Source of the DNA: Escherichia coli
GTDB taxonomy: Bacteria; Pseudomonadota; Gammaproteobacteria; Enterobacterales; Enterobacteriaceae
Assembly (NCBI RefSeq): GCF_044647545.1
Contig: NZ_CP172818.1
Strand: one strand, 5' to 3'
Length of the DNA stretch: 64,000 nucleotides
In this document: positions 30,059 through 33,824 of the stretch, piece after piece
Layout of the letters: every line of letters starts with the position of its first letter
How positions within the stretch are numbered: the stretch's first letter is position 1
Made by a program: the position numbers and the translations under genes
Notes under the pieces: generated by a model
Databases searched by the model: none
What the model was told of the DNA's origin: nothing
What the model saw: the letters and a program-made list of their open reading frames with translations, nothing else

Positions 30059-30493
30059 AATTAATCATTCCTTAAACAAATGTTTAGCGGGCGACAAAGT
30101 TTACCCGTCAATACATCGAAACCCAACCTTTTTACGTTTTCATTTTTTAAAGTAACTGTTTAATTTTCCTGACGCAGATGACACCACGCTTACAGCCAAA
30201 TGAATTTAGCGTTACCGGCGACCCTATTGTTTACATTAATTATGCAAAATTTATGGATGAGTTGTTGATATGCCATTGAAATTAAGAAAGCCGTGCAGGC
30301 AAGTTTTCCATTTGCCATCTACGCTTAATTTTGAAGGTGTATCACCGGGCACGTTGTTCTCATCGTCGATAAAATGGCATGAGAGTTGCTGTGTTTTAGC
30401 AAGAGACGTCGTTCAGTTTACCTCTTCCGGGAGCCTCTACTATTCATATGAACGGCTCTTAACCTGTGCTAAAAAACGAAAGGACGGCATACC

Positions 30494-32428
30494 ATGAATA
30501 TATTCGATCACTATCGCCAGCGATATGAAGCTGCCAAGGACGAAGAGTTCACACTGCAGGAGTTTCTTACCACTTGTCGGCAAGATCGCAGTGCTTATGC
30601 CAACGCGGCTGAGCGGCTATTGATGGCTATTGGTGAGCCTGTCATGGTCGATACAGCCCAGGAACCCAGACTTTCTCGACTCTTTTCTAACCGGGTCATT
30701 GCACGTTATCCGGCGTTTGAAGAGTTTTACGGCATGGAAGACGCGATTGAACAGATTGTCTCCTATCTGAAACACGCGGCTCAGGGGCTGGAAGAGAAGA
30801 AACAAATCCTGTATCTGCTGGGGCCTGTGGGTGGGGGTAAATCATCGCTTGCTGAGCGACTGAAATCATTAATGCAGCTCGTACCGATTTATGTATTGAG
30901 CGCCAACGGTGAGCGTAGCCCGGTCAACGATCATCCGTTCTGTCTTTTCAATCCGCAGGAAGATGCGCAGATTCTGGAAAAAGAGTATGGCATTCCTCGC
31001 CGTTATCTCGGCACCATCATGTCGCCGTGGGCGGCAAAACGCCTGCATGAATTTGGTGGCGATATCACTAAGTTCCGGGTAGTGAAGGTCTGGCCGTCAA
31101 TTCTGCAACAAATTGCTATCGCCAAAACGGAACCCGGTGATGAGAACAACCAGGACATCTCCGCCCTGGTAGGGAAAGTCGATATTCGTAAACTCGAACA
31201 CTACGCGCAGAATGACCCGGACGCCTACGGCTATTCCGGTGCGCTGTGCCGCGCCAATCAGGGGATCATGGAATTTGTCGAGATGTTTAAAGCACCGATA
31301 AAAGTGCTGCATCCCTTGTTAACCGCCACCCAGGAAGGTAACTACAACGGGACGGAAGGTATCTCCGCCCTGCCGTTCAACGGGATTATTCTCGCGCACT
31401 CGAACGAATCCGAATGGGTCACTTTCCGTAATAACAAAAACAACGAAGCCTTCCTCGACCGTGTTTACATCGTGAAGGTGCCGTATTGCTTGCGCATTTC
31501 CGAAGAGATCAAAATCTACGAGAAATTGCTTAATCACAGTGAATTGACTCACGCCCCCTGCGCCCCTGGCACGCTGGAAACGCTGTCACGTTTTTCTATT
31601 CTTTCGCGTCTGAAAGAGCCAGAAAACTCCAGCATTTATTCAAAGATGCGGGTTTATGATGGTGAAAGTTTGAAAGACACTGATCCCAAAGCCAAGTCGT
31701 ATCAGGAATATCGTGACTACGCCGGTGTCGATGAAGGGATGAACGGTCTGTCGACGCGTTTTGCGTTTAAGATCCTCTCCCGCGTGTTCAACTTCGATCA
31801 TGTAGAAGTGGCGGCAAACCCGGTCCATCTGTTCTACGTCCTGGAACAGCAGATCGAGCGCGAGCAGTTCCCGCAAGAGCAGGCAGAACGCTATCTGGAG
31901 TTCCTGAAAGGTTATCTGATCCCGAAATATGCCGAGTTTATCGGCAAAGAGATCCAGACGGCCTACCTTGAATCCTATTCCGAATATGGGCAAAACATTT
32001 TCGACCGTTATGTTACCTACGCGGATTTCTGGATTCAGGATCAGGAGTATCGTGATCCGGATACCGGGCAGTTGTTTGACCGCGAGTCTCTTAACGCCGA
32101 GCTGGAGAAAATCGAGAAACCGGCGGGGATCAGTAATCCAAAAGATTTCCGCAACGAGATTGTTAACTTCGTACTGCGCGCCAGAGCGAATAACAGCGGA
32201 CGCAATCCGAACTGGACCAGCTATGAAAAACTGCGCACGGTTATTGAGAAGAAAATGTTCTCCAATACCGAGGAGCTGTTGCCGGTTATTTCGTTTAACG
32301 CCAAAACGTCAACCGACGAGCAGAAGAAACATGACGACTTTGTCGACCGTATGATGGAAAAAGGCTACACCCGTAAACAGGTGCGTTTACTGTGCGAATG
32401 GTATTTGCGCGTACGTAAATCGTCTTAA
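30494..32428 (+). CDS. yeaG: PrkA-family serine protein kinase
   Basis: 644 aa; Walker A-like GPVGGGKSS; AAA-like N-domain. Confidence 0.95.
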   Translation: MNIFDHYRQRYEAAKDEEFTLQEFLTTCRQDRSAYANAAERLLMAIGEPVMVDTAQEPRLSRLFSNRVIARYPAFEEFYGMEDAIEQIVSYLKHAAQGLEEKKQILYLLGPVGGGKSSLAERLKSLMQLVPIYVLSANGERSPVNDHPFCLFNPQEDAQILEKEYGIPRRYLGTIMSPWAAKRLHEFGGDITKFRVVKVWPSILQQIAIAKTEPGDENNQDISALVGKVDIRKLEHYAQNDPDAYGYSGALCRANQGIMEFVEMFKAPIKVLHPLLTATQEGNYNGTEGISALPFNGIILAHSNESEWVTFRNNKNNEAFLDRVYIVKVPYCLRISEEIKIYEKLLNHSELTHAPCAPGTLETLSRFSILSRLKEPENSSIYSKMRVYDGESLKDTDPKAKSYQEYRDYAGVDEGMNGLSTRFAFKILSRVFNFDHVEVAANPVHLFYVLEQQIEREQFPQEQAERYLEFLKGYLIPKYAEFIGKEIQTAYLESYSEYGQNIFDRYVTYADFWIQDQEYRDPDTGQLFDRESLNAELEKIEKPAGISNPKDFRNEIVNFVLRARANNSGRNPNWTSYEKLRTVIEKKMFSNTEELLPVISFNAKTSTDEQKKHDDFVDRMMEKGYTRKQVRLLCEWYLRVRKSS

Positions 32429-32540
32429 CAACCCTGGCCCGGTACACTTGCTACCGGGCCTACAACGACAGCGAACCGTGGGCCAGAGAAGCGGCAACAC
32501 AGGCGTAGCATACCGTTGGCAAATGTAGTACGGGGGGCAT

Positions 32541-33824
32541 ATGACCTGGTTTATTGACCGGCGTCTGAACGGCAAAAACAAAAGCATGGTGAATCGCCAG
32601 CGTTTTTTACGCCGTTATAAAGCGCAAATTAAACAGTCGATCTCCGAGGCCATTAATAAGCGTTCGGTGACTGACGTCGACAGCGGCGAGTCCGTATCCA
32701 TTCCCACGGAAGATATTAGCGAACCGATGTTTCATCAGGGGCGTGGCGGTCTGCGCCACCGCGTGCATCCGGGCAATGACCATTTCGTCCAGAACGACCG
32801 AATTGAACGTCCCCAGGGTGGCGGCGGAGGTTCCGGCAGTGGTCAGGGCCAGGCCAGCCAGGATGGTGAAGGTCAGGATGAATTCGTCTTTCAGATTTCG
32901 AAAGATGAGTATCTTGATCTGCTCTTTGAAGATTTGGCTTTACCGAATCTGAAACAAAACCAACAACGCCAGCTGACCGAATATAAAACGCATCGGGCGG
33001 GTTATACCGCTAACGGCGTTCCGGCCAATATCAGCGTTGTGCGTTCATTGCAGAACTCACTGGCACGACGCACAGCCATGACGGCGGGCAAGCGGCGGGA
33101 ACTTCATGCGCTGGAAGAGCATTTGACCATCATCAGCAACAGTGAACCTGCGCAACTGCTGGAAGAGGAACGTCTGCGCAAAGAAATTGCAGAATTACGT
33201 GCCAAAATTGAACGCGTCCCTTTCATTGACACCTTCGATTTACGTTACAAGAACTACGAGAAGCGGCCCGATCCCTCCAGCCAGGCAGTGATGTTTTGCC
33301 TGATGGACGTTTCCGGTTCAATGGATCAGTCCACTAAAGATATGGCTAAACGTTTTTATATTCTGCTGTATCTGTTCCTCAGCAGAACGTATAAGAACGT
33401 GGAAGTCGTATACATCCGCCATCATACCCAGGCGAAAGAAGTCGATGAACATGAGTTTTTCTACTCGCAGGAAACTGGCGGCACCATTGTTTCCAGCGCC
33501 CTGAAACTGATGGATGAGGTAGTGAAAGAGCGTTATAACCCGGCACAGTGGAATATTTACGCAGCCCAAGCATCAGACGGCGATAACTGGGCCGATGACT
33601 CTCCGCTTTGCCATGAAATTCTGGCGAAAAAAATATTACCCGTTGTTCGTTATTACAGCTATATCGAAATTACACGTCGCGCGCATCAGACACTGTGGCG
33701 AGAATATGAGCATCTGCAATCTACTTTCGACAACTTTGCGATGCAGCATATCCGCGACCAGGATGATATTTATCCGGTGTTCCGTGAACTGTTTCATAAA
33801 CAAAATGCAACAGCTAAAGACTAA
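32541..33824 (+). CDS. yeaH: DUF444 (UPF0229) protein, partner of YeaG
   Basis: 427 aa; Gly-rich low-complexity stretch [18 protein letters not shown]; vWA-like DxSGS motif (MDVSGSM). Confidence 0.9.

Follow-up and report, generated by a model that had tools for sequence, protein, structure and literature searches.

The yeaG-yeaH locus and its upstream control

The window analysed here is the whole 64-kb stretch of Escherichia coli DNA, and all coordinates refer to it. It carries yeaG and yeaH on the plus strand, separated by a spacer of 112 nt (32429-32540), and the divergent gene mipA lies upstream of yeaG across a gap of 435 nt (30059-30493). An original prediction made from the letters of the sequence had given the two genes as yeaG and yeaH (a PrkA kinase plus a DUF444 protein), together with the lengths of the spacer and of the upstream region, and all of this holds. 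The yeaG product matches the Pfam families AAA_PrkA and PrkA (E 1e-187), the yeaH product matches DUF444 (E 5e-191), and the DNA of the pair is 100% identical to that of several E. coli chromosomes annotated yeaG/yeaH. The same DNA was found in 5424 of 5426 complete E. coli genomes. The features of the locus are as follows.

30319-30332, plus strand: putative RpoS-type extended -10 element CTACGCTTAA, from the sequence; K-12 is collinear with the window here
30375-30390, plus strand: sigma-54-type promoter motif TGGCATGAGAGTTGCT, GG and GC 12 nt apart, from the sequence
30463-30472, plus strand: pairing site CCTGTGCTAA of the sRNA SdsR, -31 to -22 of yeaG (PMC10954441), converted from the ATG at 30494
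30494-32428, plus strand: yeaG CDS, PrkA-family AAA+/kinase protein, 644 aa, stop codon TAA at 32426-32428
32435-32464, plus strand: degenerate REP unit with a 9-bp stem, a 7-nt loop and the REP tail CTACA (32460-32464)
32465-32466, plus strand: published RNA 3' ends, K-12 1868879 (LB, OD 2.0) and 1868880 (M63) (PMC7815308 supplementary file 1)
32478-32496, minus strand: decayed remnant of a second, inverted REP (GTGGGCCAGAGAAG..CGGCA), from the alignment of relatives
32514-32540, plus strand: conserved block ending in the yeaH Shine-Dalgarno CGTTGGCAAATGTAGTACGGGGGGCAT, from the alignment of relatives
32541-33824, plus strand: yeaH CDS, DUF444 protein, 427 aa
33829-33862, plus strand: intrinsic terminator of the yeaGH unit, an 11-pair stem (33829-33857) and then TTTTT, from the terminator scan

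How is the transcription of yeaG started? Two promoters have been reported, one RpoS-dependent and one RpoN-dependent and activated by NtrC, and a reporter fusion starting at -93 has been described (PMC10954441). The 5' boundary of the operon at K-12 1866746 corresponds to window position 30332 (PMC10667835), and the extended -10 element is probably the reported RpoS-dependent promoter. The sigma-54-type motif has a predicted start near 30401, giving a leader of about 93 nt, and it is likely to be the NtrC/RpoN-dependent one. The leader is also the place where SdsR pairs, and in an SdsR deletion the YeaG and YeaH proteins rise together (PMC10954441). With two reported promoters and an SdsR site (PMC10954441), the upstream region does have the complex control that had been supposed for it.

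On the downstream side, the operon map joins yeaG and yeaH in one unit (PMC10667835 Table S7), whose only transcript end lies past yeaH, at K-12 1870276, which is window position 33862 (PMC10667835). The map has one log-phase start site for yeaGH and none that is internal. At the level of the operon it counts one start site each for RNase II and RNase R, listed without positions (PMC10667835).

A hairpin after the yeaG stop codon

Starting 7 nt 3' of the yeaG stop codon there is an inverted repeat, GGCCCGGTA-N7-TACCGGGCC, whose 9-bp arms at 32436-32444 and 32452-32460 are 100% complementary. The bases 3' of the stem are TACAACGA, with no T-run in the DNA and no U-tract in the RNA. The prediction of a 9-bp hairpin without T-run at 32436-32460 is thus exact in both coordinates and sequence. 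The hairpin alone (37 nt) folds with -18.0 kcal/mol and z = -4.2, a value equalled by none of 200 dinucleotide shuffles; the fold of the entire 112-nt spacer is unremarkable (z = -0.75).

Is the hairpin a terminator? An intrinsic terminator has a GC-rich stem and then a U-rich tract, while the tail here is TACAACGA. The hairpin site was not called in the terminator scan, and the true terminator after yeaH was called by the same scan. No match was found when 29900-34100 was searched on both strands with Rfam covariance models at E up to 10. A promoter scan found no promoter-like site within the spacer, so an internal yeaH promoter is unsupported. Two further readings of the spacer were dropped. 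In the minimum-energy fold of the whole spacer the yeaH Shine-Dalgarno pairs with the bases just 3' of the yeaG stop, and this idea was given up because the CCC run involved is missing in E. albertii. The conserved block TTGGCA..TGCA ahead of yeaH was considered as a sigma-54 site and rejected for its spacing, since GG and GC are 7 nt apart in it and not 12.

Identity of the hairpin as a REP element

What is this hairpin? It is a degenerate REP element. REPs are short (about 20-40 nt) GC-rich imperfect palindromes that can form a stem-loop and lie outside genes, after a stop codon or between the genes of an operon, and the hairpin has this form and this place, between yeaG and yeaH. A full REP, TGCCCGGYGGCGC..GCTTRCCGGGCCTACA, occupies the orthologous site in Citrobacter, Enterobacter, Pseudescherichia and an E. 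coli-like genome, and in most cases another REP comes after it in inverted orientation. The E. coli copy retains the arms of the first REP and its CTACA tail, a tail kept in 10 of 15 aligned relatives.

For comparison with REPs elsewhere a model, R1, was built from 24 REPs, all at other loci. The tetranucleotide CTAC (GTAG on the opposite strand), which is conserved in REPs, is present at the base of the stem and aligns with the CCUACA tail of R1. When the 64-kb window was scanned with R1, the hairpin was the top match and the only REP-like match near yeaGH, with a borderline 18.5 bits (E 0.044, the calibration being rough). The orthologous first REPs of six relatives (L004, L005, L006, L008, L009, L010) score 26-41 bits. 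As intact REPs reach 26-51 bits, similarity to the REPs of other loci makes the hairpin a member of the family only as a degenerate one.

The REP class TGCCCGGTGGCGC..GCTTACCGGGCCTACA has exactly the same arms and CTACA tail as the hairpin; in Klebsiella, Enterobacter and Citrobacter its members sit between the cistrons of unrelated loci (gcvP-gcvH, argH-argB, hpa genes). The exact subclass of the hairpin is multi-copy in Klebsiella: one K. pneumoniae chromosome has it at at least 40 places, and a 791-kb K. aerogenes record at 20. It is multi-copy in Enterobacter and Citrobacter too. In E. coli only 1098 of 5426 genomes have it, at no more than 3 places per genome. In this species the yeaG spacer is single-copy, and the wider REP superfamily is multi-copy (9 copies in 50 kb of K-12).

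The REP nature of the site is probably already known, and it is ordinary rather than new: an element REP134 is listed for yeaGH, by gene pair and citing EcoCyc, in Table 2 of PMC10100675. The RefSeq record of K-12 has no REP features anywhere, not even at malE-malF, so the missing annotation at yeaG-yeaH is uninformative. The supplements of RepRanger do not list yeaG. The original prediction, made from sequence only, had not recognised the hairpin as a REP.

Conservation of the stem and history of the spacer

Has the stem been kept during evolution? Its conservation in relatives had been proposed as a check, and by alignment and folding it is retained in Klebsiella and other genera. All 15 sequences examined from Escherichia, Citrobacter, Enterobacter, Klebsiella and related bacteria have it, with -14.6 to -21.7 kcal/mol. 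They span five or more genera, over which the neighbouring REP and the linker decay. Among the 14 distinct sequences, positions 2-9 of the stem are always base-paired, save for one unpaired cell each in pairs 8 and 9. Pair 8 is C-G in some sequences and U-A in others, with G-U as an intermediate form. The covariation score of 0.246 compares with 0.169 in shuffles, of which 1 in 500 reached it. The covariation could alternatively come from a DNA-level constraint on REPs, or from the swapping of REP variants, and not from RNA function. In E. albertii it is only the sense-strand RNA that still has the stem (-17.4 vs -6.7 kcal/mol). The sense strand is the more stable one in 8 of the 15 sequences; note that in canonical REPs the CTAC strand in any case has an advantage of about 2 kcal/mol. 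The distance between hairpin and stop codon is 4-10 nt in all REP-bearing relatives.

The second REP has a different fate. Intact in relatives, it reads GTAGGCCGGATAAGCG..GCGCATCCGGCA; in E. coli and E. albertii it has suffered a 12-nt deletion and substitutions, and the remnant at 32478-32496 gave no R1 match in the window scan. Inverted partner REPs score 34-49 bits with R1 in four relatives (L002, L004, L005, L010) and 16.3 bits in L006. At these five loci the spacer holds a BIME, with at least two alternating REPs and short linkers, an arrangement that is not seen in the window. The block at 32514-32540 is retained from Escherichia as far as Serratia, Brenneria and Rahnella; there the spacer is 34-36 nt long and consists of little else. 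From this alignment it appears to be the ancestral core of the yeaG-yeaH spacer.

On a wider scale, the spacer is shorter than 45 nt in 28 of 79 species, and none of these 28 has a hairpin of -15 kcal/mol or stronger, which means that the yeaG-yeaH module works without the hairpin. Where the spacer is at least 45 nt, a strong hairpin is present in 46 of 51, compared with 12% of matched coding windows. Other lineages have palindromes of unrelated sequence in this spacer, and in Citrobacter sp. FP75 (L003) and Serratia grimesii (L018) it contains what we take to be ERIC elements, recognised from the standard ERIC primer sequences. The 8-kb loci, spacers excepted, were searched for further copies of the non-enterobacterial hairpins, and nothing but chance matches was obtained.

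RNA 3' ends at the hairpin

In published Term-seq data, with coordinates converted by an offset checked against K-12, RNA 3' ends lie 5-6 nt past the last base of the stem in stationary LB and in minimal medium (PMC7815308). There is thus some 3' end formation at the hairpin site. Both are conditions in which yeaG is expressed, and the 3' end is absent in exponential LB (PMC7815308). The reads at this 3' end are low, about 760-1200, and protection and termination look alike in such data (PMC7815308). Other canonical REPs in the same data have 3' ends 3-12 nt past their stems. The PLoS Genetics supplements of Dar and Sorek make no mention of yeaG, and we found no published experiment on the yeaG-yeaH hairpin itself.

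What then remains of the roles that had been predicted? That the hairpin is not a canonical terminator agrees with the lack of a U-tract and with an operon map that ends after yeaH; the Term-seq 3' end 5-6 nt past the stem shows that some RNA ends do form there. That it is an RNA processing or stability element suits a REP, a class known for such roles, though Term-seq cannot separate processing or protection from partial termination.

A scenario for the hairpin and its alternatives

We think it rather probable that the hairpin is a REP-type 3' end-forming element, by which a yeaG-only RNA is marked while read-through still feeds yeaH. In the Escherichia-Citrobacter-Enterobacter-Klebsiella lineage a pair of REPs, tail to tail, would have entered the short ancestral spacer. 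The first REP would then have been shortened in E. coli, yet stayed stable as a hairpin, and the second would have decayed. The hairpin would be transcribed inside the bicistronic yeaGH mRNA and may block 3'-to-5' exonucleases, as is usual for REPs in operons, which shield transcripts from 3' exonucleases (PMC10100675). An RNA that had been cut or had ended farther downstream would be trimmed back to a few bases past the stem, leaving a stable yeaG-only species, and full-length read-through transcripts would supply yeaH. The expected outcome would be more yeaG message than yeaH message. Read-through past the hairpin is suggested by the lack of a U-tract, by the map with one operon, and by the joint rise of YeaG and YeaH without SdsR. 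We infer that protection, and not termination, gives rise to the 3' end, and that it may be relevant to the YeaG:YeaH ratio.

Could the polymerase itself make the 3' end? It might pause or end at or just past the hairpin, in a Rho-dependent or weakly hairpin-driven manner, and so lower the transcription of yeaH. Rho-dependent termination at REP clusters was reportedly found by Espeli et al. in 2001. The stem is strong and GC-rich, the 112-nt untranslated spacer leaves some room for Rho loading, and an RNA 3' end 5-6 nt past the stem is what such attenuation could leave (PMC7815308). However, there is no U-tract, the terminator scan did not call the site, and yeaGH has one transcript end only in the operon map (PMC10667835). 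The site is also not among the Rho termination regions of PMC7815308, which is a weak test because these were obtained in exponential LB, a condition without a Term-seq 3' end for yeaG. Partial termination is, in our estimate, unlikely. The stem might also act on translation. As it starts 7 nt past the stop codon, a ribosome at the stop must open it, and stalling there could be a brake on YeaG, one that is compatible with the 3' end formation proposed above. REPs less than 16 nt from a stop codon have been reported to stall ribosomes, with the result that the mRNA is cleaved and less protein is made from the upstream gene (Liang, Rudd and Deutscher 2015, as described in PMC12306157). The 7 nt here and the 4-10 nt in all REP-bearing relatives agree with this report, but the shared distance is not independent evidence, since one insertion inherited by all of them would give similar distances, and the yeaG-yeaH stem is shorter than a full REP. 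A translation brake is doubtful, although it keeps some plausibility.

Another explanation is that the hairpin is a neutral relic, a selfish or drifting repeat that decays slowly in a tolerant spacer, with the 3' end as a by-product of any stable stem. The decay of the partner REP in E. coli and E. albertii speaks for it, as do the 28 of 79 species without the hairpin, the unrelated palindromes and ERIC elements (L003, L018) in the same spacer, and a REP subclass that is not spreading in E. coli. But a relic would hardly be expected to keep its stem at -14.6 to -21.7 kcal/mol in 15 of 15 sequences despite the decay of the neighbouring REP and linker, to show G-U and compensatory changes, or to have strong counterparts in 46 of 51 spacers of at least 45 nt against 12% of matched coding windows. 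We regard it as quite possible, though not probable. One may also ask whether the palindrome works as DNA, bound by a protein or used as an operator for an internal yeaH promoter. REP clusters are bound by gyrase, IHF or Pol I, and the 9-bp inverted repeat is perfect. What is left here, however, is a single short REP and no cluster, and the E. albertii version is a poor DNA palindrome and a good RNA hairpin. No promoter-like site lies in the spacer, and the log-phase map has no internal start (PMC10667835). A DNA-level site is highly improbable.

The REP reading accounts for the RNA 3' end in the published Term-seq data. If it is right, yeaG and yeaH, usually treated as simply co-expressed, may differ in level, and unequal levels would be relevant to studies of how YeaG and YeaH slow metabolism in nitrogen starvation. 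Across species, the picture is of a short ancestral spacer later filled by REP, ERIC and other palindromes, repeats that colonise and decay. In gamma-proteobacteria nearly every lineage with a spacer longer than about 45 nt has a strong non-homologous stem-loop (REP, ERIC, and the palindromes of Vibrio, Shewanella and Yersinia). Is the hairpin then one case of a device acquired repeatedly and independently to set the YeaG:YeaH ratio? This is a speculative idea, and we would not expect it to hold; if true, the pattern could mean selection for a 3' stabiliser or attenuator at the junction of a very highly conserved stress module. The importance of the hairpin is mostly one of annotation, and it raises no new question.

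Comparison with known systems

The hairpin shares with REP/BIME elements (malE-malF of K-12; the TGCCCGGTGGCGC..GCTTACCGGGCCTACA class) the form of an extragenic, intercistronic, GC-rich imperfect palindrome. With the REP class of Klebsiella and Enterobacter it has the arms GCCCGG and CCGGGC and the tail CTACA in common, all identical. The tail-to-tail pair with about 15-25 nt between the units, which is the ancestral state at yeaG-yeaH, is known from malE-malF, gcvP-gcvH and argH-argB, and the RNA 3' ends a few bases past the stem are known from other REPs. Unlike intact REPs, the yeaG-yeaH unit has a short loop in place of the upper stem and measures about 29 nt instead of 32-39; it scores 18.5 bits instead of 26-51, its partner has decayed, and its subclass is single-copy in E. 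coli. The ERIC elements of L003 and L018 are likewise transcribed intergenic palindromic repeats in the same yeaG-yeaH spacer, but their sequence is unrelated (GTGAATCCCAGGAGCGTACATAAGTACGTGACTGGGGTGAGCG), and they are much longer and absent from the window. Intrinsic terminators resemble the hairpin in being stable GC-rich stem-loops 3' of a stop codon with an RNA 3' end just after. They differ from it in the U-tract, which the hairpin lacks, and the bicistronic unit runs on past the hairpin to its canonical terminator at 33829-33862.

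The yeaG-yeaH locus

Of 5426 complete E. coli genomes, 5424 contain the yeaG-yeaH DNA, and several chromosomes of the species with annotated yeaG/yeaH match the window here at 100% identity. Four PLSDB records filed as plasmids (CP125156.1, NZ_CP141089.1, NZ_CP134663.1 and NZ_OL790696.1; 4.8-5.4 Mb, with genes of the chromosome, among them yeaG, gapA and mipA) are evidently chromosomes. A cdgI (yeaI) homologue lies downstream of yeaH. The features of the locus in the window are:

29312-30058, opposite strand, mipA, upstream of yeaG
30319-30328, CTACGCTTAA, promoter-like motif just 5' of the published operon 5' boundary (30332)
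30375-30390, TGGCATGAGAGTTGCT, promoter-like motif spaced as for sigma-54, which would give a leader of some 93 nt
30494-32428, yeaG ORF, 644 aa, Pfam AAA_PrkA and PrkA
32541-33824, yeaH ORF, 427 aa, DUF444
33829-33857, canonical terminator 3' of yeaH, followed by TTTTT (terminator scan)

The original prediction held the 435 bp upstream of yeaG, a region common to the divergent mipA, to be long enough for complex control. The literature agrees: it describes one promoter that depends on RpoS and another that depends on RpoN and is activated by NtrC, as well as SdsR pairing at -31 to -22 (PMC10954441, PMC4664914). From their sequence, the motifs CTACGCTTAA and TGGCATGAGAGTTGCT would be these two promoters, and the predicted leader matches the -93 start of a published reporter fusion (PMC10954441). 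The mipA-yeaG region of this strain shows seven differences from K-12, all inside 54 bp (30176-30229); the motifs and the yeaG leader (30230-30493) are identical. YeaG is very strongly conserved, with 82-89% amino-acid identity between E. coli (window 30494-32428) and Vibrio, Shewanella, Alteromonas and Rheinheimera (L032-L080), and YeaH has 63-77% in the same genomes.

REP character of the hairpin

The hairpin starts 7 nt 3' of the yeaG TAA stop and consists of a left arm GGCCCGGTA (32436-32444), a 7-nt loop and a right arm TACCGGGCC (32452-32460) with 100% complementarity. No T-run follows the stem (the bases there are TACAACGA), so that coordinates, pairing and lack of a T-run are just as first described. 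Alone it folds at -18 kcal/mol (z = -4.2; 0 of 200 shuffles equally stable); the entire 112-nt spacer is not unusually structured (z = -0.75). The terminator scan gave no call at the hairpin, and Rfam gave no match across the yeaG-yeaH region.

What kind of element is it? Species-representative genomes were scanned with YeaG, which gave 80 loci (L001-L080), ranging from Escherichia as far as Vibrio, Shewanella and Alteromonas, and every yeaG-yeaH spacer was taken out. In close relatives a form TGCCCGGYGGCGC..GCTTRCCGGGCCTACA stands directly after the yeaG stop, and an inverted GTAGGCCGGATAAGCG..GCGCATCCGGC follows some 15-20 nt further on in six loci (L002, L004, L005, L006, L007 and L010). 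By their sequence these are REP elements arranged tail-to-tail. The TGCCCGGYGGCGC..GCTTRCCGGGCCTACA type forms a family present in many copies in Klebsiella, Enterobacter and Citrobacter: BLAST located at least 40 sites on one K. pneumoniae chromosome (filed as a plasmid), 20 on a K. aerogenes record of 791 kb, and 8-16 on several large records of Enterobacter and Citrobacter. Copies that were fetched lie in the gcvP-gcvH gap, in the argH-argB gap and within the hpa cluster, most of them paired with an opposite-strand GCCGGATGGCGC-type REP. Two parts of the E. coli hairpin recur in this family, its left arm (GCCCGGT) and its right arm with the tail (TACCGGGCCTACAA), but a short loop stands in place of the upper stem. 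Of the second REP, E. coli has a remnant GTGGGCCAGAGAAG..CGGCA at 32478-32496, whose 12-nt deletion is common to E. coli and E. albertii.

For an independent test of membership, a covariance model (R1) was built from 24 REPs, none from yeaG loci. The yeaG hairpin is its top match in the 64-kb window, at 18.5 bits (E about 0.04, filters off and with rough calibration), and its only REP-like match near yeaGH. At the orthologous site the first REP scores 26-41 bits in L004, L005, L006, L008, L009 and L010, and 16-18 bits in K-12, L007 and L002; the partner scores 34-49 bits in L002, L004, L005 and L010, and 16.3 bits in L006. The scores run by degrees from intact copies to worn ones. The yeaG-yeaH hairpin is thus, on sequence grounds, a degenerate member of the long-known REP family. 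By report, a REP is already catalogued at this operon: a table in a fluoride/RNA-decay paper, with REP entries from EcoCyc, assigns REP134 to the yeaGH operon (PMC10100675). The RefSeq K-12 record is silent at yeaG-yeaH, which is uninformative since it carries no REP features anywhere, malE-malF included.

The R1 runner-up in the window, TACCAGATG..ATCTGGCCTACA at 16148-16185 (-), reaches 14.4 bits (E about 0.3) and is possibly a further degenerate REP. At 28335-28359 a REP-like GC hairpin, TGCCGGGTGCGACG..ATCCGGCACG (13.4 bits on +, 11.1 bits on -), adjoins the yeaE 3' end, and yeaE Term-seq 3' ends (K-12 1864735 and 1864740, -) lie 9-14 nt past it along yeaE transcription. Of 5426 E. coli genomes, 1098 carry a Klebsiella/Enterobacter-type REP (97% identity) between genes, at a site without annotation (H39-H50, e.g. 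NZ_CP025849.1 761636-761670); this REP class is otherwise rare in the species, and here its presence or absence is polymorphic.

Conservation of the stem and history of the spacer

Is the stem kept? The E. coli spacer is single-copy at ≥95% identity in 5424 genomes. Among sampled variants the loop reads CACTTGC, CACATGT or CACATGC; one variant has T for C in the 3' arm but retains a G-U pair, and one has an altered tail. K. pneumoniae has a 9-bp hairpin, ACCCGGCGG-CACG-CCGCCGGGT, at the corresponding place, and the proposed check in Klebsiella thus came out in favour of conservation. Among 14 distinct sequences, pairs 2-9 hold throughout, save that pair 8 and pair 9 are each unpaired in one sequence. 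At pair 8, C-G and U-A alternate, with G-U forms in between; pair 2 changes once, from G-C to A-U. Covariation scores 0.246, compared with 0.169 for shuffles, of which 1 in 500 attains the real value, and slid controls fall far below it. Sense-strand folds of all 15 sequences lie between -14.6 and -21.7 kcal/mol. In E. albertii the stem forms in sense-strand RNA only (-17.4 vs -6.7 kcal/mol). Over all taxa the sense strand was the stabler one in 8 of 15 sequences, and the CTAC strand of canonical REPs has an inherent advantage of about 2 kcal/mol. The stem is kept, and either an RNA role or a constraint on REPs as DNA elements may account for it.

Spacers of at least 45 nt occur in 51 of 79 species; 46 of these hold a hairpin of -15 kcal/mol or below and 42 one of -18 or below, compared with 12% and 3% of same-length windows within yeaG. 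The other 28 species have spacers of 16-44 nt and no such hairpin, and therefore the hairpin is not essential to the yeaG-yeaH module. Between orders the hairpins are non-homologous. The spacers of L003 (Citrobacter sp. FP75, ~5020-5075) and L018 (Serratia grimesii, ~4980-5020) contain what we take, from ERIC primer sequences, to be ERIC-like elements (GTGAATCCCAGGAGCGTACATAAGTACGTGACTGGGGTGAGCG); therefore the site hosts different repeat families by lineage. Four Vibrio spacers (L040, L043, L047, L054; several species) have palindromes CCTRCCAGAG..CTCTGGYAGG in common, perhaps a repeat family of that genus; the 8-kb loci yielded no extra copies.

In Brenneria, Rahnella and Dickeya the complete 34-36-nt spacer roughly equals a block GTTGGCAA..TTTGGGGGA, and the E. 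coli spacer closes with this block too (32514-32540). The simplest history is that the ancestral spacer was short, being the yeaH translation start region, and that palindromic repeats were later inserted between the yeaG stop and the block. The block itself, GTTGGCAA..(6-9 nt)..GGGGG, forms the last ~30 nt before the yeaH start in L001-L022 and has been retained in genera from Escherichia through to Serratia, Brenneria and Rahnella; the remaining spacer varies freely. The block exceeds the length that a Shine-Dalgarno sequence requires, and so might serve yeaH in the control of translation or as an sRNA site.

RNA ends and possible mechanism

Then what does the hairpin do? K-12 Term-seq gave RNA 3' ends at 1868879 (LB, OD 2.0; 1211 reads) and 1868880 (M63; 762 reads) (PMC7815308), which in the collinear window are 32465 and 32466, 5-6 nt past the stem; in LB at OD 0.4 none is reported (PMC7815308 supplementary file 1). 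Other canonical REPs in these data have 3' ends 3-12 nt past their stems. The two genes are transcribed together: operon 224 (K-12 1866746-1870276, +) comprises yeaG and yeaH with one transcript end (PMC10667835 Table S7), and its boundaries, window 30332-33862, place that end at the terminator 3' of yeaH. In an sdsR mutant YeaG and YeaH proteins both rise, SdsR pairing in the yeaG leader (PMC10954441), which fits a shared transcript.

Because of the 3' end past the stem, the bicistronic unit and the report that REPs shield transcripts from 3' exonucleases (PMC10100675), we favour a REP-type exonuclease barrier. The hairpin would protect the transcript from the 3' side, a stable yeaG-only RNA would accumulate beside read-through transcripts, and the YeaG:YeaH ratio could be affected. 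The same 3' end may instead come from partial termination, Rho-dependent or hairpin-driven; the site is not among the Rho termination regions of PMC7815308, which are for exponential LB, a condition without a Term-seq 3' end for yeaG. Ribosomes may also stall at the yeaG stop, and the closeness of the stem to that codon speaks for this; according to the summary in PMC12306157, REPs less than 16 nt from a stop lower upstream translation. Or the hairpin may be a neutral relic. It seems unlikely to us that the yeaG-yeaH junction gained strong hairpins again and again for their tuning of the YeaG:YeaH ratio.

The original prediction of an RNA processing or stability element rather than a terminator was right in kind, but the element is a degenerate copy of a family known for long. 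The tail-to-tail REP pair of the relatives has the same arrangement as the malE-malF REPs of K-12, and all observations made here lie within ordinary REP biology.
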